A stretch of DNA of 64,000 bases from Candidatus Poseidoniaceae archaeon (GCA_964228815.1 CAXRAL010000009.1:5377-69376); one strand, 5' to 3'. Positions 9,139-31,255 are shown, counted from the stretch's first letter. Translations and numbers: made by a program. Notes: generated by a model not told the origin, from the sequence alone.

Positions 9139-10026
9139 ATGTGGCAAGGTGTCCTCCAGTCCTTGGCTCCGTTGGTCGGAGGTGGGCTTGCGCTGTACCT
9201 TCATCACCGGCGAACCAACAGCGAGGAAGGGGGGCACTGGACCGATGCCATCGGGGTGGGTGGTGTTCGCATGGCGCTGGCCTTCGCTGTACTCATCTGG
9301 CTTGTTCCAGCAGGTGCACTGTTGGCGGTCCCGGTGTTATTGATGCTGTCTCTCCTCAGTCCGGCCGGTCGTCAGGAATGGTCGGTCCAGCGAACGCCTC
9401 GATTGTTGGCCCTCTGTGTGGCACTCCTTTGTCTGGGAGCCACAGGGTTTCTTCCTGTTTCCCAGCCCGTTTCCCCGGATGATTGGGGTCAACCGCTGTT
9501 TACTGAAAATCCACATGCGCCGGTCTATCCTGCCGGCCAGCAATACACGTGGGTCACCTCGGATGTTGTGGTGCTGCAGTCCCTGAGCATGCGCCTTCCG
9601 CATCAACCGGGGGTCATGGGTGCCGAAACGGTGGCGCTCACCTTGGCGTCGCTCATGAACATGGAAACCGGTCGTTTGCACCAAGCGATTGAGCTCATCG
9701 ATGAGGAGGTTCCCTTCGTTCGCCTCAACCCCGAAGAGATCACCCTGCAACCCGTTCTGGCACCGTCCACCTGGGACATAATCATCGGTAGCTGGGACTC
9801 TGGCGACGTTGAGACCGTGGTGCACAGAGCCTACGACATCAATACCACGGCGTTTGGCTCAGACCCACAAGGAACGAAGGTCGGTGAGGTCTCGATGGTG
9901 GCCAAAGCCTCGTGGGGTGGCCAGTTGGACATCCTGGTCATCGTTCGCCCGCTTCAACCACCCAACGTGGACTACGACGGCCTCGGTGAATCCTGGATTC
10001 GAGATTGGCTCATCGCTCGTGGATGA
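9139..10026 (+). CDS. Membrane protein, hypothetical
   Basis: ATG at 9139 (MWQGVLQSLAPLVGGGLALYL...) lies inside ORF 8989..10026. The upstream part of that ORF overlaps the ABC ATPase gene on the opposite strand. Four hydrophobic helices are followed by a soluble domain. Confidence 0.5.
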   Translation: MWQGVLQSLAPLVGGGLALYLHHRRTNSEEGGHWTDAIGVGGVRMALAFAVLIWLVPAGALLAVPVLLMLSLLSPAGRQEWSVQRTPRLLALCVALLCLGATGFLPVSQPVSPDDWGQPLFTENPHAPVYPAGQQYTWVTSDVVVLQSLSMRLPHQPGVMGAETVALTLASLMNMETGRLHQAIELIDEEVPFVRLNPEEITLQPVLAPSTWDIIIGSWDSGDVETVVHRAYDINTTAFGSDPQGTKVGEVSMVAKASWGGQLDILVIVRPLQPPNVDYDGLGESWIRDWLIARG

Positions 10027-10049
10027 TGGCTGTCATCCCAAATCTTGTG

Positions 10050-10655
10050 TCAAGGGTTTTTTGGGAAATCCCATACGGGTGGCTGTTCCTCTTCGGTCTG
10101 TACTGGTTGTATTTGCCCGAAATGATTCGTCTGCAAGGGCTGTTGCACATACACGACATTGGTCGGTTTACTTTGAGCGCTCATTACGATACCAACGATT
10201 AATCCGATCACAGACAAACAGCACAATCCACCTCCCACAGTGAAAGCACCGCCTCCTTCCGAAACGTAGACCCAATCGTCAATCACCAGGATCTCATGGT
10301 TTGAAGAAACATCCAATGCCCCGTCTTCATCTGACCACAAAACACCGATGGCCCGCCAGCCATCTTCGTCAAACAGGGAATCACATTCCTCATTGAAGTA
10401 CTCATATTCTTCGTTAGAAATTGAAACCGTCGTTTCTGCACAGGTGTATTCATCATTGACAAAAACGGTGTATGTCCCATCTTTGGTCACCTGAAGGGTC
10501 CCGCTGGTACCTCGAAACAAAGCCTCCTCCTCTACATCTATTTCAGAAACATCAACCAGTCCGATTCCAATGAACAAAATGGAAAGCAAAAGCATGGCGA
10601 CTGAACTGATCAGGACGATGATTGGGGTTTTTGACATGGTGGACGGTGGCGACAC
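10050..10655 (-). CDS. Bitopic membrane protein, hypothetical
   Basis: 201-aa ORF. The N-terminal TM is IIVLISSVAMLLLSILFIGIGL. An acidic beta-rich middle region follows. The second TM is GGGLCCLSVIGLIVGIVM, followed by a Q/P-rich tail. The DNA is visibly AT-richer than its neighbours. Confidence 0.5.
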   Translation of the reverse strand: MSPPSTMSKTPIIVLISSVAMLLLSILFIGIGLVDVSEIDVEEEALFRGTSGTLQVTKDGTYTVFVNDEYTCAETTVSISNEEYEYFNEECDSLFDEDGWRAIGVLWSDEDGALDVSSNHEILVIDDWVYVSEGGGAFTVGGGLCCLSVIGLIVGIVMSAQSKPTNVVYVQQPLQTNHFGQIQPVQTEEEQPPVWDFPKNP

Positions 10656-18386: not shown

Positions 18387-18626
18387 ATGGCGATTTTCGG
18401 CCGTGAAATCATCGGAAACAACGTGGTGGACCGTACCGGGGCCGTGTTGGGGTCACTTGTGGACCTCAGTTTCGATTTGAACACGGGCGTTATCAGTGAA
18501 CTCCTCGTCCAAGTCGAAGCAACCGTGGATGCCGCTGCGTTGCCGTTTGAGAACACCGGTGCAACCGTTCACATCCCGGGGACGGCCGTGGCTCGGATTG
18601 CTGAAAACATTCACCTCAATGTATGA
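18387..18626 (+). CDS. PRC-barrel domain protein
   Basis: 79 aa. IIGNNVVDRTGAVLGSLVDLSFDLNTGVISELLV ... VHIPGTAVARIAENIHL matches the small archaeal PRC-barrel pattern. AGGAGGT lies about 8 nt upstream of the ATG. Confidence 0.75.
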   Translation: MAIFGREIIGNNVVDRTGAVLGSLVDLSFDLNTGVISELLVQVEATVDAAALPFENTGATVHIPGTAVARIAENIHLNV

Positions 18627-18720: not shown

Positions 18721-20343
18721 GTGGTTTGCATGCTCGGTCTTCCTGCCAACTTCAATGCACGAAGGCTTGCCCTTCAGGCGTCGTTTTGGGCGGTCATGCT
18801 CATTTTGTTGATGACCATTCTTCTGAATTTCATCAACCTCAGTGCCACGGACCAGTTGTCAGCGTACGACGACGATTGGGACGACATGTCTGCCTTCCGT
18901 GCTGACATCAAATCCATGGGCATCGAAACCCGCTCGCTGGTGAGCAGTCCGTTGCTGCTGGCTGACATTGAGGACCCTCGCAACACCACCTACGTCCTGG
19001 CTGGTGTTGAGCGAGACACCCTTTCACTGCCTCAATTTGATGATGATGGCTTCATCACCATCGCCTCAGGCAACGGCTATTCTCCGTCTGAGATCAACGC
19101 CATCGTTGAGTTTGTCGAAGCCGGTGGCACGGCGATGGTGTTCGAGGATTACGGCTACGCCAACACCATCGCTGAGGCGTTTGGTATTCGCTTTACGGGC
19201 GAGCAGGTGTTTGACACGACCTACGCCACTGAACTGGATTTCAATTACGTCTGGATGTGCGTGCAAAGCAACCCCTGCGGCATGAACGGCACGCAGCTTG
19301 ACCCCTCCACTCTCTCCACTCACGACCGCTGGGCGGATGCTGGTGGGCCGGGCGAACACCCCTGCTCAAAACTCGACGAGCAGACCTTTGTGGTGGGTGA
19401 GGCGCCCCTGTGTGCTCAACACATGATCAACGGTCGCGTGGACTACAACGGCACCTACCAGTTGCTGCTCAACAACATCACCGGGCTCGAAGTCATTCCC
19501 GGTGTGCGTGGGCCGCTCAGCGAGGTGGCCGTTCGGGCGCTGACCAGCAACGAAGCGACGGTCGATGTGAACGGCGACGGCGAGATTTGGGTGGGCAACG
19601 AAATCACGCCTGAAACGCCCGACCGGTGGGGGCAGTTCAACCTCAGCATCGAGGCCTGCGCTCGTGCCAGTTGCTCGCCGTCCGACGGTGGACGAATCGT
19701 GTTCGTCGCTGACGGTTCTGCCCTCATCAACGCGATGTACGATTATGAGGGCTTCAACGAAGGAAAATACGGCCCCACCGACACCCTGATGCCTGCCAAC
19801 GACAATCGAAAGTGGGCTCTGGACTTCATTGCAGAGGCCCTCATGAGCGAACTTATCGACGAAGTCGGTGAGCCGGCCGAGAACGCCATGGTCATCTTCG
19901 ACGAGAGTCGTCACCCCCAAAGTGCACTGGCGGCTGATTCCTACAACACCGTCTACTTCCTTCTCGTCTATTTCACCGGTGAAGGCCTGGCCATGCTGTT
20001 GTTGTTCCTGATCCTGTTCATCACATTTGAAGCGGTGCTCATCAAGAAGCGAGACCCTGAACCATGGCGCCATGTCTTCAGCATCATTTACTACGGCTTT
20101 GGCGACGCCAATCGCTATGCCTACTACTCCAAAGTTGAGAAGATTCGACAGGTGTTCCTGTCCAAGGTCCGCAACCAAAACGGGCTGAACCGAGAAGAAT
20201 TCCAAGCGATGCAGGCCAACGAACTGGTCTCGATGATCAACGACCCGGTGTTGGCCAAATTCGCCGTTGAATCCAGCAACAAGTACACCCTTGAACAGAC
20301 GGTTGCGCTGGTCAAACGCATCAAGGCGTGGGGGCGCCAGTGA
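18721..20343 (+). CDS. DUF4350-like membrane protein (N- and C-proximal TM helices flanking an extracytoplasmic domain)
   Basis: The first TM is FWAVMLILLMTILLNFINL. The ectodomain carries a DUF4350/GldG-like segment (YVLAGVERD...SPSEINAIVEFVEAGGTAMVFEDYGY). The second TM is AMLLLFLILFITFEAVLI, followed by a helical cytoplasmic tail. The gene sits directly upstream of a DUF58 gene, the usual context for this family. Confidence 0.55.
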   Translation: MVCMLGLPANFNARRLALQASFWAVMLILLMTILLNFINLSATDQLSAYDDDWDDMSAFRADIKSMGIETRSLVSSPLLLADIEDPRNTTYVLAGVERDTLSLPQFDDDGFITIASGNGYSPSEINAIVEFVEAGGTAMVFEDYGYANTIAEAFGIRFTGEQVFDTTYATELDFNYVWMCVQSNPCGMNGTQLDPSTLSTHDRWADAGGPGEHPCSKLDEQTFVVGEAPLCAQHMINGRVDYNGTYQLLLNNITGLEVIPGVRGPLSEVAVRALTSNEATVDVNGDGEIWVGNEITPETPDRWGQFNLSIEACARASCSPSDGGRIVFVADGSALINAMYDYEGFNEGKYGPTDTLMPANDNRKWALDFIAEALMSELIDEVGEPAENAMVIFDESRHPQSALAADSYNTVYFLLVYFTGEGLAMLLLFLILFITFEAVLIKKRDPEPWRHVFSIIYYGFGDANRYAYYSKVEKIRQVFLSKVRNQNGLNREEFQAMQANELVSMINDPVLAKFAVESSNKYTLEQTVALVKRIKAWGRQ

Positions 20344-20354
20344 GGTGAAGGGCC

Positions 20355-21608
20355 ATGTGGACGAGAAAGGCAGCCTTCACCTTCACCGGCGGGATTGCGC
20401 TGGTGCTCATCGGGATGATGATATCCAACCAGCAAATGATGATCCTCGGGTTGAGTCTCATCGCCTTCATCGTGGTGAATTCATGGATTTCAGGCCACGG
20501 CGATGTTGAAGTTCAACGCACGCTCTCGGCCGACAACCTGTACAAAGGCGACGACCTGTACGTGGAATTGTTGGTGACCAACCGGAGCAATCGGAAGACG
20601 CAGATGCTGGACATCTACGATAACATTCCTCATGAGATGAAGCTGCGCAGCGGGCTCAACCAGATGCAGCTCAACCTCAAACCCGGCGAGAGCGCCCGCA
20701 TTCGCTACGTCCTCCGATGTCCGCTTCGTGGGCACTACTCCATCGGCCCTGTGTCGCTTCGGGCCCGTAACACGTTCAACCTGGGCGTTGAGGAGATGTA
20801 CGTCGACCATCACAGCGATATCGTCATCTTCCCTCAAATCAAGGATATCGAGGAAGCCTTCCTGCGCAGTCGAACCCCGAAAATGTACACCGGTGCGACC
20901 ACCCTTCGAACACCCGGTCAGGGCTCAGAATTCTACTCTCTCCGAGAATACGTGCCCGGCGACCCGTTCAAGAACATCAACTGGAAAGCCTTCGCTCGCA
21001 CCGGGGAATTGATGGTCAACGAAAAGTGCCGTGACGCCGTCACCGACCTGTACCTCATCCTCGACAGCCGTGATTTGGCTCGCATCGGTACGGTGCTCAA
21101 GAATCCCCTCGAGATGGGCACCGTCTCGGCCGCCAGTCTGGCTGCGTTTTTCCTGAAGCGTCGGGATTCCGTGGCCTTGGCCATTTACGACGAGAAGCTC
21201 GCTTACTTGCCGCCCGACACCGGCGACAAGCAGTACTTCAAGATCCTCAGTGCGCTTGCAGGCGTCCGTCCAAAAGGCGCCATGCCGCTCCAAGCGGTTA
21301 CCAACTCCTTGAGCGGTCGGTTCAGCCGCGGCAGCCCTGTGTTCATCATCTCATCGTGCGAGGGGGACGGTACCGTGCCGGCCGCTGTGCGAGACCTCGT
21401 CGGCCGAGGCCACGAAGTCACCGTGCTCTCGCCGTCCAGCGTTGATTTCGAACGCTTGGTCAGCCGCATCCCCCGAATGTCCTATGAGGTGTTGAAACTG
21501 GAGCGTCAAAACCGCTTGACGACGCTCGCAGGTTCGGGGGCCCAAGTGATTGATTGGATGCCTGACATGGATTTGTCGCAGGCCTTGATGCAGGTGAGGG
21601 GGTACTGA
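20355..21608 (+). CDS. DUF58 domain protein (vWA-like, MoxR-associated family)
   Basis: Two N-terminal TM helices are followed by the DUF58 signature GSEFYSLREYVPGDPFKNINWKAFARTGELMVNE. Confidence 0.8.
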   Translation: MWTRKAAFTFTGGIALVLIGMMISNQQMMILGLSLIAFIVVNSWISGHGDVEVQRTLSADNLYKGDDLYVELLVTNRSNRKTQMLDIYDNIPHEMKLRSGLNQMQLNLKPGESARIRYVLRCPLRGHYSIGPVSLRARNTFNLGVEEMYVDHHSDIVIFPQIKDIEEAFLRSRTPKMYTGATTLRTPGQGSEFYSLREYVPGDPFKNINWKAFARTGELMVNEKCRDAVTDLYLILDSRDLARIGTVLKNPLEMGTVSAASLAAFFLKRRDSVALAIYDEKLAYLPPDTGDKQYFKILSALAGVRPKGAMPLQAVTNSLSGRFSRGSPVFIISSCEGDGTVPAAVRDLVGRGHEVTVLSPSSVDFERLVSRIPRMSYEVLKLERQNRLTTLAGSGAQVIDWMPDMDLSQALMQVRGY

Positions 21609-21609
21609 G

Positions 21610-22827
21610 ATGGCAGGTGAAGTCGGTCTCCAGTCGGATGTCTACCTCGACGGGGCGGCCAAGCCTCGTACGCTTCACCTCAAGACGCTGCGTCGTCAGT
21701 GGCAAATCATCGCCCTGCAAGTCGTGGCCACCATCGCCCTCATCGGTATGTACCTCGAGGTTGTCTCAACCTATGTCGTGGGTTCAATTGACCACACCAT
21801 CCTCTTCGATTCCATTGAGTTGCTCATTTCGGACCAACTTCCGCTGGGCGACTGGCTGACCGGTGAAGGCCGAACAGGCATGGCTCGATTCTTCGTCCCC
21901 CTCGTGTTGGGGTTGGGTCTGGGTGGTGTGATGGCGTTCATTGCCTTCCAATCGCCCAAGGTTCAACAGCGCATCAAACTCGGCTTCATCGTCGGCCTCA
22001 TTGTCCTCTTGATCGGGCGTTTGGTGTTGTCATGGTTCGCTGGCATGTTGTTTTCCTTTGACCTTCGATTCCCTACCAACGACGAGTTGGAGACCCTTCA
22101 GTGGCCGTTGCTGATGATCATGTCCCTGCTCATTCTGTTCATCTATCTCCTTCCCGTCATCATGGGAACACGTGGCATTTGGGGTCTGTCCCGCCGGTCC
22201 ATCGCATGGGCCATCGGGTTCACGCTATTGTTCCTCGGCATTCACGCCATCTTGACCTTCCCGCTCATCAAATCCCAGTTGGGCTCCTACGGTGGGGCCC
22301 TCGCCACACTAGAGAGTCAAACCTCCGACCCCACCATCGGTTTGTTCGGCCTCAATCTCGTCACGCAGGAACAATTCAACCTCATCCTCATCGCCGTGCT
22401 GATCATGGTGTTCCAAGAGGCCAGCTACGGCGTCATTCGCAACCTTGAGTACGCTTTCCGCCTCCCCGAGTCGTGCAAGCGTGACCCCGAATACGTCCGC
22501 CAGATGGACAACGTTCTCAACACCCATCTTCGACACACCTTCCTGTTCCTCGGCCTGACGGGTCTGGCCACCATGGTGGCACTGGGCTTCCACAAGGTCC
22601 TGCTGACCATTGTGTCGGATACCACGGGGAGTCAGTGGGCGGGCCAAGTTTCAGAATCGATTGAGTTGACGCTGACCTACGGATTGGTCATCTCAGCGCT
22701 GTTGTTCTTGAGCATCATGGCTGTGCTTCGATTTTTCATCCCCTGGCAGCGTGTGATCGGGTTCATCCAATCCAAAACCAGCCGAATTCCACCCGAGCCG
22801 GAAACAAAGGATTTCTCACAACTATGA
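21610..22827 (+). CDS. Polytopic membrane protein, hypothetical (third gene of the DUF4350/DUF58 operon)
   Basis: 405-aa ORF starting 1 nt after the DUF58 stop, with about 8-9 hydrophobic helices. Confidence 0.55.
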   Translation: MAGEVGLQSDVYLDGAAKPRTLHLKTLRRQWQIIALQVVATIALIGMYLEVVSTYVVGSIDHTILFDSIELLISDQLPLGDWLTGEGRTGMARFFVPLVLGLGLGGVMAFIAFQSPKVQQRIKLGFIVGLIVLLIGRLVLSWFAGMLFSFDLRFPTNDELETLQWPLLMIMSLLILFIYLLPVIMGTRGIWGLSRRSIAWAIGFTLLFLGIHAILTFPLIKSQLGSYGGALATLESQTSDPTIGLFGLNLVTQEQFNLILIAVLIMVFQEASYGVIRNLEYAFRLPESCKRDPEYVRQMDNVLNTHLRHTFLFLGLTGLATMVALGFHKVLLTIVSDTTGSQWAGQVSESIELTLTYGLVISALLFLSIMAVLRFFIPWQRVIGFIQSKTSRIPPEPETKDFSQL

Positions 22828-23067
22828 GCGCAATGAGGCTTGGAGCGCACGGCCCAAGAATTCCACGCCGGCCAGCAAGATGAGCGGGAAGGCGATGTAC
22901 GTCAGGAGAACGCTCGCCAAAGGCTGAATCACGGTATCGGCGACCGCCGATCGACCGAAGACAAAAACGATGACAGCGCCCAGCAAAAGAAAGCGCTCCA
23001 TCCAAAGCGGGTACCGTTTCCCAACGGTTTCCTCTCTGCCCATGAGCGTCGTGGCGTCGGTCGTCAT
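22822..23067 (-). CDS. Small 2-TM membrane protein, hypothetical
   Basis: 81 aa with helices FLLLGAVIVFVFG and LLTYIAFPLILLAGVEFL. It begins 8 nt downstream of the 1063-aa coiled-coil gene on the same strand. Confidence 0.45.
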   Translation of the reverse strand: MTTDATTLMGREETVGKRYPLWMERFLLLGAVIVFVFGRSAVADTVIQPLASVLLTYIAFPLILLAGVEFLGRALQASLRS

Positions 23068-23075
23068 GTCGATCT

Positions 23076-26000
23076 TCAGAATTCAATGTCGGACAGACGA
23101 GACTCAAGGTCAGCCAGTGCCGTATCAGCACCGCTGCTGGCTGGAGCGGGGGTGTGTGCGATGCGGTGGCTGCGTTCAGCGTCCAAGCGAGCGAGTTCCG
23201 CCTCGAGTTTTGCACGCTCGTCTTCCAACGAATCAATGTGCGTGGACGTTTCGTTGGTTGCCACGACCTCGCTCACGGGGCCATCCTCGTTTGTGGGAGG
23301 TGGGAGCGGAGACCACCCCTCGTCGTCGCCGGTTTCACTGGCATCCGGAGCGACGATCTCCACGGCTTCCGCTTGGATGAGATGAGGCTCCATGTCGTCA
23401 AGCATGGCTTCGTTCACGGGAATGCGCTGCTCAGCAGGAATTGATTCTCGCTCAAACGGAAGCAATCCGTCGCGTTGGAAGGCCCACATCATGCCGCGAG
23501 GTCGTCCGTCGGTCAGGCCTGATGCATCGAGTTGCGTGATGAGTTCCTCGAGAACACGTGCTGTTTCTTCGAGGCCGATGGCCTCGCCGGCATCACGTTG
23601 GTCGGCTTCGAGGTAGATGTCATCGAGCGCAACTTGAATCAGTTTTCGGGTGCCCATGGCCAGACTTGGCAGGGCTTCCGGCCGCTGACAATTGGCCAGC
23701 AGGGCGTGAACTTCATGCGACGGTGCACCGAGTCGCTCCACCTGCTCGAGCACGTTCCGGATACGACGGAGCATGGTGATGGAGCGGTCGAAGTCTTCGA
23801 GCAGATGCTCAAGGTCGACGACGACATGGTTGACGGTTTCACCGAGTTGTTGCTCGAGCCGCTGCTGAACGGACCAGCGGGCCAACCCGCGGACGGCACC
23901 CGCCGTTTGTGGTACCTGGCGTTCCAACAGGGTCATGACTTCCGAGGACAGGAGGTGGCGGGGGGTTGCAGCGACATGATCGACCGTTCCTTGTATCACC
24001 TGCAAGGCTCGTTCGACCGCTCTGTCAAGCATCGTGACCGAGTAGCCGAGGCTCCGAGCGTGTTCGAGACGTTCGAGCACCGGGCCCAAGCCTTGGAAGG
24101 TCGTGTTGTCGTCAAGCAAGGCTTGTGCCAGCGGTTCTTCGGCGAGGCGTGCTCGCAGGCGCTCAGCTTCCTGAATGTCGGCGAGGGCTTCTTCGTGAGC
24201 CTCCGCTAAGGAGGTGGCTTTGTCGACCAAGGTGGACAACTCGGCTTCGGCATGACCGCGACGAGCGCCAAGGTCGCCCAATTCACGCAGTACCTGTCGG
24301 CGTTCGTCCATGAGTTCTCGCAATTCTGCTTGGATGTTGGCACGGCGGGCCTCGTCTTCCGCTCTTCGAAGACGGTCCTCCTCGGTGCGCTGCCGCGCGT
24401 GCTTTTCCTCGGTGCGAACCGACTCGAGTTCAAGGTTGCTGACGTGAACCTGTTCTTGAGCGGCGATGAGGTCGGCTTGGGCTCGGGCGTGTCGTTCACG
24501 GCTGGTGTTGACTTGTTCACTCAACACCCGAAGACGGCGTTCTTCATCCTCGCTCTGCTTTCGAATGGTGCTGAGGCGCTCGCTCCCTTCGGAAAGGTTG
24601 GCTTGAAGTTCGGCTTCTTTCAGCGAGAGTTCCTCAAGCATCGTTTGCAGTTCTGCACTGCTTTCTGCATCGCCGACCGCTTTCGCAAGTTCAGCAGCCC
24701 GCTGACTAACCTGGTGTTCAAGTTCGTTAACTCGCCGCACAAGGCGTTCTGCACGGGATTCCGCTTCTTCCCACTGTGAACGTGCTTGGGCGAGGTCCAC
24801 CTGCATCGTGTTCAGTTGGCGGTTGGCTTCCTCCAACGCCGTGGTGTTTTCTTGGCGTGATTCCGTCGCCTCTCGAGCGACGATTTGCGCGGCATCTTTC
24901 TTCTTCTCCAACGCGTTGACTTGAGAGGTCAGCACAGCCTTTTCCTTGTTGAGTGCATCAACCCGCTGTTCGGCCATTTCGAGTTTGCGGCGCAGCCCAG
25001 CATCGACGGCGCTCACGGCTTGATCTCGCATCACGGGGAGGGCTTCAGCAACATCGGCGCCGCCGGTGTTGAACTTGAGTTTGGAGCGTGCGGCTCGCAG
25101 CGCCTCCAAACTGGCCTCAAAGCCAAGAAGGTCCTCCAACATCGCCTTGAGTGAAGCTTGACGGGCTTCGGAACGCGTGCGGACGGTGGCCAAGGTTTCA
25201 ATGAAACCAGCCAGGGTGAATCCCTCGACGGTTCCTGAGTTGGCTGAAACGATGGTCCCGGCAGGGAAGCGAATGAGTTGCACCTTGCGCTTGGCTTCCG
25301 TGAGGGCGAGCATGGCCTCCTCATTCGTCTCGAACGAAGGGGCCCAAAGGGCGACAGGGACTCCTCGCAACAGGATGAGCGAAACCGATTTGCTTGAGGA
25401 ACCGGATTGAAGGTGGCCTGTCACTTCTTCCTGCATGGCGGCTTTCAACATGGAAAGCACCGCATCGGGGCCACCACGTCCCTCGCGGAGGGCAAAACCT
25501 TCGGGCAGTTTTGAGCCGTGTGCGCCGGCAGCGATGAGGTCGCCTTCGAGTGCGATGGAGGTGGACGAAAGGAGGCGGGCGTGATTGGCGTCTTTCTCCG
25601 TCCATGCTGCGATGGAAATCTCGCCGCTTTGGGCCAGCAGCAAGGCACCGTTTTCGGTGTGGAGCGTCCAGTGGCTTTGGCCGGACATGCCCCATCCTTC
25701 GTGCATGGACTGGTGGCCCATGCCGCTCATCATTTCGTGAAGTTCACTGGCCAAACGTTCCTCTTCACCCAGGCCGGGCAGATCGCCGGCATGATCGATG
25801 AGCATCCCGCTGTCAATGGCCATGGCGCCACGAACCGTCATGTTTTCAGACAGCGTCCTCACAACAGTCGACAGGTCTCGTGCCAAGAGGCGCTCGACGG
25901 CGTTGCTGCTCGACTTGAGTCCTTGCCGGTCCGCTTGGTGAACGAAGGCTTCCGGAACGAGTTCGGCCAGTGCGCCAAGTCTGGCGATGGTGTAGGAGGA

Positions 26001-26267
26001 AGCGACGTGTCGCACTTTTTGTTGTGCTTCGAGGGCTTCGAGGGCTGATTTTGCTTCTGCTCCACCCAACATCACGCCTTTTTTCTCGGCATCACAGAGG
26101 TAGCCAACCACTCGACCCGCGCGAACAAGTCGGTGGCCTTGCGGGGTTTTGCGCCGTCCCGCATAGGTTGAGATGACGCCGTGAGCGAAGGGCTGGAGCA
26201 CGCCCTCTTCAAGCGAGATGGATTCATTGACGGGCTTTCCAATCGGCAGTTCAAACACGGTGATCAC
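23076..26267 (-). CDS. Giant coiled-coil protein with PATAN(DUF4388)-like and Roadblock-like N-terminal modules and an acidic C-terminal tail
   Basis: 1063-aa ORF. By-eye PATAN-like segments are GHRLVRAGRVVGYLCDAEKKGVMLGGAEAKSALEALE and TGHLQSGSSSKSVSLILLRGVPVALWAPSFETNEEAMLALTE. A Roadblock-like segment is VRGAMAIDSGMLIDHAGD...ENGALLLAQSGEISIAAW. About aa 400-720 (nt about 24108-25070) is uninterrupted E/R/A/L/Q heptad-like sequence. The C-terminus is D/E-rich. Confidence 0.6.
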   Translation of the reverse strand: MITVFELPIGKPVNESISLEEGVLQPFAHGVISTYAGRRKTPQGHRLVRAGRVVGYLCDAEKKGVMLGGAEAKSALEALEAQQKVRHVASSYTIARLGALAELVPEAFVHQADRQGLKSSSNAVERLLARDLSTVVRTLSENMTVRGAMAIDSGMLIDHAGDLPGLGEEERLASELHEMMSGMGHQSMHEGWGMSGQSHWTLHTENGALLLAQSGEISIAAWTEKDANHARLLSSTSIALEGDLIAAGAHGSKLPEGFALREGRGGPDAVLSMLKAAMQEEVTGHLQSGSSSKSVSLILLRGVPVALWAPSFETNEEAMLALTEAKRKVQLIRFPAGTIVSANSGTVEGFTLAGFIETLATVRTRSEARQASLKAMLEDLLGFEASLEALRAARSKLKFNTGGADVAEALPVMRDQAVSAVDAGLRRKLEMAEQRVDALNKEKAVLTSQVNALEKKKDAAQIVAREATESRQENTTALEEANRQLNTMQVDLAQARSQWEEAESRAERLVRRVNELEHQVSQRAAELAKAVGDAESSAELQTMLEELSLKEAELQANLSEGSERLSTIRKQSEDEERRLRVLSEQVNTSRERHARAQADLIAAQEQVHVSNLELESVRTEEKHARQRTEEDRLRRAEDEARRANIQAELRELMDERRQVLRELGDLGARRGHAEAELSTLVDKATSLAEAHEEALADIQEAERLRARLAEEPLAQALLDDNTTFQGLGPVLERLEHARSLGYSVTMLDRAVERALQVIQGTVDHVAATPRHLLSSEVMTLLERQVPQTAGAVRGLARWSVQQRLEQQLGETVNHVVVDLEHLLEDFDRSITMLRRIRNVLEQVERLGAPSHEVHALLANCQRPEALPSLAMGTRKLIQVALDDIYLEADQRDAGEAIGLEETARVLEELITQLDASGLTDGRPRGMMWAFQRDGLLPFERESIPAEQRIPVNEAMLDDMEPHLIQAEAVEIVAPDASETGDDEGWSPLPPPTNEDGPVSEVVATNETSTHIDSLEDERAKLEAELARLDAERSHRIAHTPAPASSGADTALADLESRLSDIEF

Positions 26268-26609
26268 CTACAATTCATTGGTTGTGGCCAGTTGTCGACG
26301 CAATCGGTCGACGCTGTGGCGCCAGCGAGCGATGTTTCCTTTGGTTCCTGAGAGCATCAAGATGCGATAGGGGGTGACGATGTCGATGCAGGTCGTGGCT
26401 TCGCCTTCGACCCACACCTCGTGAAGTTCGCCCAATTGGCTTCCTTGTGCTGCGTCCAGGGCCGCCACCGTCAGGTCAACGGCCCGTTGAGTTGAGGGAA
26501 GTTGACCCTCTGCTCCGACGCTGGAGAGCAACCGTCCGCGGTCGTCAATGGCGGTGGCCTGCTCTACGCCGTCAACGTTCAGGAATTCCCCCAACAAGCG
26601 CTGCAGCAT
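26268..26609 (-). CDS. Roadblock/LC7 (MglB-like) domain protein
   Basis: 113 aa. LLGEFLNVDGVEQATAIDDRGRLLSSVG...LGELHEVWVEGEATTCIDIV..ILMLSGTKGNI fits the Roadblock/LC7 profile pattern (V.GV..A.L.D.dG..L.S ... LG....v.ve.e ... L.vl....N.G). Its stop codon directly abuts the start of the 1063-aa gene. Confidence 0.7.
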   Translation of the reverse strand: MLQRLLGEFLNVDGVEQATAIDDRGRLLSSVGAEGQLPSTQRAVDLTVAALDAAQGSQLGELHEVWVEGEATTCIDIVTPYRILMLSGTKGNIARWRHSVDRLRRQLATTNEL

Positions 26610-26799
26610 GGTTGCTCAATCCCACGGACAGCGCTGTGGCCTTCAAGAAGTTTTGCGCCTGAACGGCGAATTTTGCAGGTTTGAGCACCCTTTCTCATTT
26701 TCCAACTGGAAATGCAGATTTGTTGTCTCCGGCGCGGTGCACTTCAATCGCCTTCAGTGCGCGGAATTTGGGTCCGAAGCAACATGACAACAAAGAGAA

Positions 26800-26870
26800 T
26801 GCGACTCGTGAATATATCTTAATTTCTAGTTGAAAATTTGAATATTCAATTGATAAATTCAGACAACAAA
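26800..26870. promoter_or_regulatory. AT-rich core of the 335-nt divergent intergenic region (multiple TATA-like elements plus the 12-bp palindrome TTGAATATTCAA at 26838-26849)
   Basis: The sequence gaatatatcttaatttctagttgaaaatttgaatattcaattgataaattc stands out against the GC-rich flanks. It lies between the Roadblock operon (minus strand) and the ttuA/ncsA-like gene (plus strand). Confidence 0.45.
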
Positions 26871-26944
26871 AAGGCGGATTTGGTGTCGTTCAACCGCCCG
26901 CCTGTTTCCGTTGAGTTCAAACCTCACACCCTGCAGGCCGACAC

Positions 26945-29497: not shown

Positions 29498-31255
29498 ATG
29501 GTAACCTGGGCGGATGCGGATGCAGCCGTTGAAGCCGAGCGGGCTGTTCGCATCAAGCGAGTGGAAAATGCCACCCTTGTGTCTGCTCTCACCTTGTTGC
29601 TTTGTGCCGTGTGGCTGGCCTGGCCATCCATTCGCGGATTGAGCAACGGCGACGGCGTCGTCCTCGCAAGTTTTGGTGCACCGCTCCTCGTGCTCATCTG
29701 GGGTATTTTCGTTCAAGATTTGACCCTCGACGACGGCGCAGCCCGGTCCCGAGTCGCTTCGGCGACCTCGGTTGCGTGGCCGCTGCTGATGTGCCTCGGC
29801 GCCCTTGGATTCGAGGGGGATGTTCCTGCGATGGCCGGCAGTGGGTTGGTGCTCCTCTCCGGTGTTATGTGCAGGCAACTCTCTCATCGGACGATGCGTG
29901 GAAATTTCGGCGTCCTCCGCTACCGAGCCATTTTGACCGGCATTGGTACACTGTCTGCGCTGGCCCTCACGCTCACCGCTGGCGAAACGCTGACTGAGCC
30001 GCCGATGATGCTGGCGCTTGGCATATCTGCGTTTGCGATGGCCGACACCGCCTACACGTGGACGGTAGGGGACGACCAGAAGGCTGAACGAAAGCGTTTC
30101 AGACAACGCCTCGACCGATTGGAAACGCGATTGTTGGAACTCAAGGCTCAAGGAGCCGCTGTCGCCCAGGCAGCCAGCCTGTTAACCACGGCCAAGGAAG
30201 AGGGTCATCTGGATCCGGATTACGGCATGCGTCTCCTCGACGAAAGCGAGGAGGACATGGAACGCGCCCTTTCCTTCGCAGACGATGTGGAAATCATCCG
30301 TCAAGACGCCTTGACCGCGGTTGAACAGGCCGAGTCGATTGCACCCACGGTCAAACGCCCCCGGAAAGCCTACGAGATGGGTGAGCGCGAGGTCAAACTC
30401 GGCTCGCTACGAGAAGGAGAACAACTCTACCGTCAGGCCAAGAAGCGTGCCTCTGAGACCGTCACGTGGTGGGCAAAAGCCGAGGAAGCCATCCTTGAAG
30501 CAACCCGGGCATTGGACGGAAAAGACGGTGCTGGTGCCAACCAACTTCGCGAAGTGTTGTCCGAGGCGAAGGCTCAACTTGCAAGAGAGCAACCGAAGGA
30601 GGCGTACGAAATCGCCATTGTGATTCTGCCTCAATTGGACGCCGATGCGGATGCTATCGTACGTGCTGAACAATCGGTTGAGGAGGCCGTTCGTAGCGTT
30701 GCGCAGAGTGATGGCCTCGACACATCGGAGATGGAAGCTCGGTTGGAACAGGCGTCGGAAGCCTTGGCAAGCGGCAACGCCAGCCAAGCCATCGGGTTGG
30801 CTGACGGCGTGGTTCGTACGCTCGAGCGGGAGCGCGCTGCGATGGATGATGTCTTGCGTGCGCTGAAGCAGAAAAAGAAACTCAAGCAACGATACGAGGG
30901 CCGCGAGGATAAGGACCGTTGGGAGGCGATGCTGAGCGACATCGTCGCCGCCGCCGACGATAGGATTTGGAGCCATGCTGCGATGTTGCTGGAGCAGATG
31001 ACGACGGCCTTGGACCGGGACGGCCATGCGCTTGAAGAGGCCAGGGAACTCTACGATTTCGTAGCCCAGCAATGGGCCGTGCTTCGCAATCAGTGCGAGG
31101 CTGCTCACATCAAGGCCACGGACGAAGATCGTCGGGCGGTCGAGGAAGCGGTGGCCAAGGCTGAGGCACACCTCGACGTGGCTCGCCTTGAGGATGCCTT
31201 GGATGCCTTGGGTGTCGCTGACGGTGCAATGGAACGCCTACGTCGTCGCATTTGA
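29498..31255 (+). CDS. Membrane protein with about 6 N-terminal TM helices and a long Ala/Glu/Arg-rich helical-repeat C-terminal domain, hypothetical
   Basis: 585-aa ORF. The N-terminal third is hydrophobic. The C-terminal roughly 380 aa are made of recurring helical units of about 45-60 aa (for example EEAILEATRALDG, LSEAKAQLAREQPKEAYEIA, LEQASEALASGNASQAIGLA, VEEAVAKAEAHLDVARLEDALDAL). Confidence 0.55.
   Translation: MVTWADADAAVEAERAVRIKRVENATLVSALTLLLCAVWLAWPSIRGLSNGDGVVLASFGAPLLVLIWGIFVQDLTLDDGAARSRVASATSVAWPLLMCLGALGFEGDVPAMAGSGLVLLSGVMCRQLSHRTMRGNFGVLRYRAILTGIGTLSALALTLTAGETLTEPPMMLALGISAFAMADTAYTWTVGDDQKAERKRFRQRLDRLETRLLELKAQGAAVAQAASLLTTAKEEGHLDPDYGMRLLDESEEDMERALSFADDVEIIRQDALTAVEQAESIAPTVKRPRKAYEMGEREVKLGSLREGEQLYRQAKKRASETVTWWAKAEEAILEATRALDGKDGAGANQLREVLSEAKAQLAREQPKEAYEIAIVILPQLDADADAIVRAEQSVEEAVRSVAQSDGLDTSEMEARLEQASEALASGNASQAIGLADGVVRTLERERAAMDDVLRALKQKKKLKQRYEGREDKDRWEAMLSDIVAAADDRIWSHAAMLLEQMTTALDRDGHALEEARELYDFVAQQWAVLRNQCEAAHIKATDEDRRAVEEAVAKAEAHLDVARLEDALDALGVADGAMERLRRRI

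Follow-up and report, generated by a model that had tools for sequence, protein, structure and literature searches.

In a stretch of 64,000 nt from a Candidatus Poseidoniaceae archaeon (GCA_964228815.1, CAXRAL010000009.1:5377-69376; hereafter called the window) we identified three closely packed genes on the minus strand, which most likely form one operon, presumably co-transcribed, and belong to the core genome of the order Poseidoniales. They encode a Roadblock/LC7 protein of 113 amino acids (aa), a large protein of most likely 1060 aa and an 81-aa protein with two predicted transmembrane segments. In the large protein a domain with a modelled Roadblock/LC7 fold lies between two unclassified domains and is followed by a long coiled-coil rod and a conserved C-terminal domain. 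The fold is known; the architecture, together with a separate Roadblock partner and a membrane peptide, is new and restricted to Poseidoniales. We tentatively suggest that the three products assemble by Roadblock pairing into a membrane-associated, rod-shaped scaffold, lineage-specific and of putative role, a proposal that we judge to fall somewhat short of probable.

Mechanical open reading frame (ORF) calls agree with the three ORFs of 113, 1063 and 81 aa reported in a first-pass annotation of the window. The gene for the 113-aa Roadblock/LC7 protein is the first of the unit (26268-26609, minus strand), an assignment resting on the ORF, its homologues, Pfam matches and selection. The ORF of the large gene, called mechanically as 23076-26267, abuts the TAG stop codon of the 113-aa gene, and its first codon is GTG, not ATG as previously stated. 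A second GTG follows at 26258, 9 nt past the TAG. Every homologue of the large protein begins with MFELP, which matches this second GTG, and 3 nt ahead of it the sequence reads GGTGATC (26262-26268, minus strand), a motif resembling a ribosome binding site that shares the final base of the 113-aa stop codon. The shared MFELP and this motif make a start at the second GTG and hence a protein of 1060 aa (23076-26258, minus strand) most likely, and residue numbers are counted from the GTG at 26258 throughout. We take GGTGATC to match the 3' end of 16S rRNA, and it may serve in translational coupling. The third gene, for the 81-aa protein with its two predicted transmembrane segments (22822-23067, minus strand), starts with an ATG 8 nt beyond the TGA of the large gene, exactly as the first-pass annotation had it.

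Upstream of the unit, an intergenic region of 335 bp without an ORF (26610-26944, not assigned to a strand) extends toward a divergent TtuA-like gene; it includes an AT-rich stretch at about 26805-26845 and is presumed to hold the promoter. Scanning the unit for promoters and terminators gave matches at chance level only, with a scanner that models bacterial signals and is not applicable to archaea. Downstream, the unit meets a convergently transcribed gene whose product is a membrane protein of 405 aa. All three genes are real and under purifying selection: in comparison with three related loci, the 113-aa and 81-aa genes have ratios of non-synonymous to synonymous substitution rates (dN/dS) of 0.13-0.19 and 0.16-0.20, respectively, and the large gene one of 0.04-0.05, with values of 0.01-0.04 for the neighboring genes in the same comparison.

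The 113-aa protein had been read by eye as a Roadblock/LC7 protein, and this assignment is borne out by Pfam scans across the family and by profile matches to solved structures. Its 70 homologues come from Poseidoniales without exception, and almost every one has a length of 113 aa. Taken alone, the protein from the window scores 15 bits against the Pfam model Robl_LC7 (PF03259), with a cut-off of 23, and therefore family-wide scans were needed for the assignment; in the same Pfam scan the large and the 81-aa proteins of the window produced nothing above noise. Matches to Robl_LC7 at E≤0.1 were obtained for 25 of 28 family members (best E 7e-6), and two divergent orthologues are above the cut-off, one from locus L089 (26.5 bits) and one from L090 (23.8 bits). 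A family profile that includes divergent orthologues (A8) matches the Roadblock structures 7f8m (E 1.6e-6) and 9jue (E 4e-5) as well as 7yh1 and, weakly, CvnB5 (3leq, E 0.02). The alignment to 9jue covers profile residues 8-111, consistent with a complete Roadblock fold. The family has its hallmark in a G-R-[WLM]-R-H motif close to the C-terminus. At family level the evidence from sequence is solid that this is a true but divergent Roadblock/LC7 protein.

The N-terminus of the large protein appears to consist of three alpha/beta domains, according to a confident AlphaFold model of residues 1-396 (me934f3df3409; mean predicted local distance difference test score (pLDDT) 83, predicted template modelling score 0.65). 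This model was computed from 25 sequences, and it was the addition of divergent members from a search of cluster representatives that made it usable. An earlier model from 12 close homologues reached a pLDDT of only 50, and its Foldseek matches to sliding clamps (E>0.08) were discarded as meaningless.

The middle one of the three domains, domain B (residues 120-236; 25551-25901, minus strand), is assigned a Roadblock/LC7 fold by its topology in the model, by Foldseek and by Pfam, in line with the Roadblock-like segment that had been proposed inside this protein. Its elements follow in the order helix-strand-strand-helix-strand-strand-strand-helix. Searching the head model against the PDB with Foldseek yielded 77 matches at E≤0.001, and the top 50 are all Roadblock-fold proteins (probability 1.00, E 1e-5 to 3e-4, target-normalised TM-score 0.57-0.78), among them Asgard Roadblock proteins, LAMTOR2-5, MglB (6hjm, 6izw, 6h5b) and 3kye from Streptomyces. 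The aligned residues are not reported by the search, so the match was placed on domain B by topology and by Pfam. Robl_LC7 was detected at the position of domain B in 5 of 10 divergent members and not in the protein from the window itself; the best score, for P0195, was 22.7 bits (cut-off 23, E 8e-5) and covered residues 132-215 and profile positions 4-89 of 91. A viral structure library returned longin and profilin folds only, which is uninformative for the other two domains; longin, profilin and Roadblock share a broad fold class (PMC10933270). Two family members (P0288 and P0290, in the cluster of P0198) carry the JGI/IMG name 'predicted nucleic acid-binding Zn-ribbon protein/predicted regulator of Ras-like GTPase', an automatic label reflecting the coiled-coil rod and domain B; for all other full-length members, every source name seen was hypothetical.

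Domain A (residues 1-110; 25929-26258, minus strand; pLDDT about 86-92) is modelled with strands at 26-33, 41-46, 49-56 and 62-65, a helix at 66-79, a strand at 82-88 and a helix at 91-100. Domain C (residues 250-360; 25179-25511, minus strand) has pLDDT values mostly of about 85-93, with one block of 10 residues at 69, and comprises a strand at 255-261, a helix at 264-276, strands at 281-285, 292-297 and 300-305, a helix at 312-319, a strand at 325-330 and a helix at 349-358. In the model both share a strand-strand-strand-helix-strand-helix core, with one extra helix in domain C. The first-pass annotation had picked out two segments here as PATAN/DUF4388-like. The repeat as such was well seen, with the two strings falling on equivalent strand-strand-strand-helix elements of domains A and C; the PATAN identity found no support in profile searches. 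By eye, both domains show a glycine-rich strand-strand-strand-helix pattern that resembles the DUF4388 consensus, and the order of the modelled elements is compatible with it. The DUF4388 model (PF14332) matched neither the protein from the window (E≤1) nor any of 11 divergent full-length members (E≤0.1), nor, at E≤10, domains A and C taken singly from five members or the first 250 residues of ten, where HMMER filters may hide the weakest hits. A receiver domain and a pilus or motility context are likewise missing here. No reproducible Pfam match was obtained for domain A, either with the isolated domains of five members or with residues 1-250 of ten, and domain C matched neither DUF4388 nor any other Pfam family. 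A hit of domain A to DUF2226 in one member (E 0.088) did not recur in ten others and was dismissed as noise. The two domains that flank the Roadblock domain may be new at the sequence level. A profile comparison of domain A with domain C was not significant, and so a common origin of the two by duplication cannot be demonstrated.

The large protein has 328 relatives in a collection of 5.8 billion proteins; those with source names are all called hypothetical, and the organism names indicate Candidatus Poseidoniales or Poseidonia. When one genome per GTDB species was scanned, relatives of the large gene were found in 216 genomes. The best 80 of these show 58-98% identity and are labelled nearly exclusively as Poseidoniaceae, Poseidonia or with a broader archaeal name. 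One contig in the set (NZEQ01000033.1), titled "Verrucomicrobiales bacterium ARS100", carries the Poseidoniales trio and its neighbors at 83-95% identity and is most likely mis-binned archaeal DNA. A profile of the N-terminal 397 residues, searched exhaustively against 1.84 billion cluster representatives, found 71 proteins, all of which belong to the large-protein family, and no protein of another architecture. Full-length members among them measure 1020-1089 aa, and the domain order is identical in the nine divergent members that were aligned. As members from Candidatus Thalassarchaeaceae are present among the divergent clusters, the family spans both families of Poseidoniales.

Synteny within Poseidoniaceae was counted in the best 80 of the 216 species-level loci, wherever the contig reaches. 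Within this limit a homologue of the 113-aa gene always lies directly upstream of the large gene (42-99% identity), and a homologue of the 81-aa gene directly downstream in 76 (33-90% identity), the contig ending first in the other four. Since the wider neighborhood is also syntenic, we turned to nine lineages whose large protein retains only 34-48% identity. In seven of the nine a gene of 100-123 aa lies immediately ahead of the large gene (in one case truncated by the end of the contig, in another only weakly matched), and in eight a membrane protein gene of 72-93 aa follows downstream, while the contig of the ninth is too short to tell. The trio is thus kept in seven of nine divergent lineages, Thalassarchaeaceae included, even where the large protein is only 34% identical; it persists despite changed neighbors, such as an inserted methyltransferase or FG-GAP gene nearby, and spacers of 8-10 nt on one strand are maintained across lineages. 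The inserted FG-GAP repeat protein has 448-461 aa, is hydrophobic at both ends and was seen at 9182-10567 of locus L083 and also in L081 and L082. In the most divergent lineage it separates the small membrane gene from the large gene, overlapping the 3' end of the latter.

Several points weigh against a joint scaffold. The whole neighborhood is syntenic throughout the order, with PyrBI and the TtuA-like gene on one side and DUF58, DUF4350 and Cdc48 genes on the other, and so adjacency carries less weight than it would if gene order were scrambled. The small Roadblock gene was absent from the flanks of the large gene (up to 5 kb per side where the contig allows) in two of the nine lineages, L085 and L086, and is thus not obligatory there; it is nearly, not fully, universal, and the synteny of the trio among relatives holds with this restriction. 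Profiles of the 113-aa family and of the internal Roadblock domain do not match each other significantly (E ~0.07), which leaves an origin of the small gene by duplication not demonstrable. Comparisons of the 113-aa profile with domains A and C, and of the three domains among themselves, likewise fell short of significance. Complex formation, membrane association and dimerisation are deduced from the proteins' anatomy rather than directly observed. The stretches upstream of the large gene in which no small Roadblock gene was found are 4690-5001 in L085 and 4511-5001 in L086. The large proteins of both lineages keep the internal Roadblock domain, and for one of the two its Pfam score (22.7 bits) is the highest in the family.

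One could accordingly regard the three genes as mere neighbors in a syntenic region that do no joint work. The order-wide conservation of the series PyrB, PyrI, TtuA-like gene on one side and 405-aa, DUF58, DUF4350 and Cdc48 genes on the other would agree with that, as would the loss of the Roadblock gene in two lineages and the FG-GAP gene that splits the large and the membrane gene in one. What speaks for a functional tie is that the short same-strand spacers are kept across lineages, that the trio evolves several times faster than its flanks and yet stays together at 34% identity, and that the small and the large protein share a fold which acts as a dimer wherever it has been characterised. 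We therefore rate mere proximity as very unlikely. Because the membrane gene is kept more widely than the small Roadblock gene, the large gene and the membrane peptide form the most persistent core of the unit.

The absence of a GTPase partner had been put forward as a peculiarity of this locus. The absence stands: in no ORF of the window does a Walker A motif occur together with an NKxD motif, the Walker A-containing ORFs being an ABC ATPase, Cdc48, an Mrp/NBP35-type ATPase and an M14 carboxypeptidase (a chance motif match), and no GTPase gene adjoins the unit in the divergent loci inspected. The coupling to a GTPase gene within four genes that marks MglB-type systems was found neither in the window nor in the divergent loci. 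Its being unusual does not stand, as 328 of 749 MglB-family genes are not beside a GTPase gene, compared to 421 coupled to an adjacent mglA (PMC4316618), and Asgard Roadblock genes generally lie outside operons with GTPase genes (PMC10933270). GTPase-unlinked Roadblock genes are thus common, and a missing GTPase is not surprising here. As of 2014, no function was known for any prokaryotic Roadblock protein without a GTPase partner (PMC4316618).

The main rival to a scaffold is that the trio regulates a small GTPase encoded elsewhere, as a GTPase-activating protein, an exchange factor or by docking, with the rod and the membrane peptide positioning the activity. The closest relatives in sequence and fold (Asgard Roadblock proteins, MglB, LAMTOR, CvnB) are in favor of this, as is the classic link of Roadblock proteins to NTPase regulation (PMC4316618); the JGI/IMG label on two members and the frequency of unlinked Roadblock genes fit as well. 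However, in addition to the lack of a GTPase in the window and beside the divergent loci, MglA-type GTPases of archaea (Group 4) are confined almost entirely to methanogenic Euryarchaeota (PMC4316618), and some Roadblock and longin proteins function without GTPases (PMC10933270). All in all we regard GTPase regulation as unlikely.

The head is followed by a coiled-coil rod at residues ~364-705 (24144-25169, minus strand), delimited by composition, heptad score and the last helix of the model, which begins at residue 364. The rod contains 3% proline plus glycine, is rich in alanine, glutamate, leucine and arginine and shows a raised heptad score; the proline-free coiled coil within the large protein extends over about 300 residues. 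The long coiled coil noted in the first-pass annotation is thus well supported, apart from its being uninterrupted: a glycine-rich break, LGDLGARRG, is located at residues ~660-668 and is 53-88% identical among divergent members. In NCBIfam and PADLOC the only matches of the rod were to the coiled-coil arms of SMC, Rad50 and JetC, far under the cut-offs.

These matches raise the idea of an SMC/Rad50/MukB-like protein that organises chromosomes or serves in defence, as JetC does in Wadjet. The likeness lies in a long helix of heptad-rich composition, with weak hits to SMC_prok_B (36 bits), Rad50 and JetC models. The matches span residues ~360-850, nearly all of them coiled coil, and amount to 36 against 567 bits, where the NCBIfam and PADLOC cut-offs are 300-1087. 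Unlike the SMC, Rad50 and JetC proteins, the large protein lacks both an ATPase head and a Walker A motif, and it shows no central symmetric break that would allow folding back at a hinge; its N-terminus is instead a head containing a Roadblock domain. Kleisin-like or nuclease partners are missing from the locus, which has a core-genome context in 216 species. An SMC-like function is therefore extremely improbable, and the view that the large protein is not a fragment of an SMC or Rad50 protein proved right. A sequence scan of the large protein revealed no transmembrane segment either, and its overall net charge is -58.

It is also conceivable that the large protein is a self-assembling cytoskeletal coiled coil like crescentin, FilP or DivIVA, which shapes or divides the cell, with the other two proteins as accessories. 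The long heptad-rich rod points in this direction, and the core-genome status, the strong purifying selection and the co-encoded membrane link would suit such a role. On the other hand, the rod makes up only about one third of the protein, and some 650 residues are globular, unlike in typical filament formers; there is no sign of polymerisation, and the strongest constraint falls on the C-terminal domain, not on the rod. We consider a filament of this kind distinctly unlikely.

The C-terminal domain comprises residues 706-940 (23439-24143, minus strand), was delimited by identity among lineages and is probably helical. It is the best-conserved part of the large protein, with 46-65% identity among lineages (55-65% over residues 656-940) compared to ~33% for the other domains, and it is nearly invariant within Poseidoniaceae. 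Its profile has no significant match in PDB sequences, Pfam or NCBIfam, and by sequence it constitutes a new conserved domain. FliS came up with E 0.02 in the PDB, and the Pfam FliS hit in P0195 falls elsewhere, in the coiled coil; both were set aside as helical noise.

Beyond this domain an acidic, proline-rich linker of variable sequence is recognised by its composition (residues 946-1010; 23229-23423, minus strand). It has a net charge of -16, 17% proline plus glycine and only 14-25% identity among lineages, and its length varies. The C-terminal tail (residues 1011-1060; 23079-23228, minus strand) is predicted from its sequence pattern to form two short, acidic amphipathic helices. It ends with L..LE..L.D[LI][ED]-hydrophobic-COOH in 11 of 11 divergent members, and the last 14 residues are encoded at 23079-23120 (minus strand). 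The acidic tail ending in a short coiled coil described in the first-pass annotation thus resolves into a variable acidic linker and a conserved, probably helical C-terminus, whose end looks like a short docking motif. A loose likeness to the ESCRT-III MIT-interacting motif was rejected, as the tail is acidic where that motif has its basic last position.

The 81-aa protein contains two hydrophobic segments at residues ~20-45 and 45-72, in agreement with its earlier description as a peptide with two transmembrane segments. A profile built from the 81-aa proteins of close loci finds the downstream gene in eight divergent loci, with E-values from 1e-21 to 7e-8 in seven of them and a weak 0.0025 in L090. 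Conserved are an N-terminal motif, TLxGRxE..G..YP...ER, ahead of the first segment, P..L in the second segment and E..GR..Q at the C-terminus. With two membrane spans both termini come to lie on one side of the membrane, presumably the cytoplasm.

From these parts the proposed scaffold can be sketched as follows. The three genes would be co-transcribed and co-translated. The large protein would dimerise through its coiled coil of ~300 residues to form a rod of roughly 40-45 nm, and its internal Roadblock domain would pair with the separate 113-aa Roadblock protein or, in lineages lacking the small gene, with its counterpart in a second chain. This would create a Roadblock platform of the kind that binds partner helices or NTPases in Ragulator, MglB and dynein LC7. 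The 81-aa protein may anchor the assembly in the membrane by way of the motifs conserved at its two ends, while the C-terminal domain and the acidic terminal helix motif could contact a conserved partner. The anatomy is compatible with the "membrane-tethered cytoskeletal or polarity scaffold" that had been suggested for this locus.

A bolder version seems unlikely to us: a lineage-specific, GTPase-independent, membrane-anchored cell-organising apparatus in which a Roadblock heterodimer sits on a rod of ~45 nm and the C-terminal domain docks onto a core machine, for example for division, envelope organisation or chromosome handling. If it were true, the trio would be a prokaryotic counterpart of the Ragulator and dynein LC7 adaptors that arose outside the Asgard-eukaryote line. 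GTPase-less Roadblock proteins occur widely among archaea and have been discussed as precursors of the adaptors that eukaryotes use for membrane traffic and motors, and the trio offers a concrete case of a Roadblock protein paired by gene order and fold with a rod protein and a membrane peptide. Its hosts are globally abundant, uncultured planktonic archaea (Marine Group II), and it provides testable hypotheses about their cell architecture. Should the trio not form a complex, it would come down to three lineage-specific hypothetical genes.

The flanking genes scanned are housekeeping genes or have no family: SdhA, aldehyde dehydrogenase, Cdc48, a PRC-barrel ORF, DUF4350, DUF58, the TtuA-like PP-loop protein, PyrBI and ThrRS. 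No motility family was detected among the flanking ORFs scanned against Pfam, in keeping with the first-pass annotation, which had seen no motility gene adjacent to the unit. Defence models from PADLOC matched neither of the two small proteins, and the large protein only with JetC at the level of the coiled coil. An anti-phage function is not indicated: no system matched, and the locus is core and syntenic, with relatives in 216 species genomes.

Three genes at 18721-22827 (plus strand), encoding DUF4350, DUF58 and the 405-aa multi-span membrane protein, converge on the trio. The 405-aa protein has no Pfam match and is 74-100% identical among relatives, and this block was located beside the trio in every lineage examined. 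Between the Cdc48 and DUF4350 genes lies a 79-aa ORF (MAIFGREIIGNNVVDRTG..., 18387-18626, plus strand); it is placed like the 81-aa PRC-barrel gene (PF05239) of L081-L083 and L085 and is thus probably a PRC-barrel protein. At a distance of 3 kb from the unit, a 585-aa ORF (29498-31255, plus strand) has a hydrophobic N-terminal third and a remainder rich in alanine, glutamate and arginine, without a Pfam match; it is probably a second coiled-coil-like membrane protein whose remainder is helical.

The first-pass annotation knew of no described system with the architecture of the trio, and Pfam, NCBIfam, PADLOC, PDB sequences and literature searches likewise yielded none. The nearest relatives are the Asgard Roadblock proteins (7f8m from Thorarchaeota, 7yh1 and 9jue from Prometheoarchaeum), which are the best profile matches of the 113-aa family and are among the top fold matches of the internal domain. 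They are single-domain proteins of ~115-130 aa and, in contrast to the trio, stand-alone homodimers without a co-encoded coiled-coil protein or membrane peptide. MglB, with MglA and MglC in Myxococcus and Thermus, shares the Roadblock fold and acts via Roadblock dimers, but is a single-domain protein usually encoded beside mglA, whereas the large protein embeds its Roadblock domain in a 1060-aa rod protein with no GTPase in the window. The Streptomyces conservon (CvnA-D) resembles the trio as a membrane-associated multi-protein unit with a Roadblock protein; its sensor kinase, DUF742 protein and GTPase are all absent here. Ragulator (LAMTOR1-5) is a membrane-anchored scaffold of Roadblock-fold pairs, and LAMTOR2, 3, 4 and 5 are strong fold matches; its anchor, however, is the lipidated, extended LAMTOR1 without a rod, and its clients are Rag GTPases, none of which was found in the window. 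Roadblock proteins work as dimers that bind partner helices (PMC10933270), and in this sense dynein LC7/Roadblock comes close, its dimer serving without a GTPase as an adaptor on helices of a much larger partner, though within a eukaryotic motor complex, while the trio has no motor. In its design the trio comes closest to Ragulator and dynein LC7, a likeness best understood as an analogy, not as membership.

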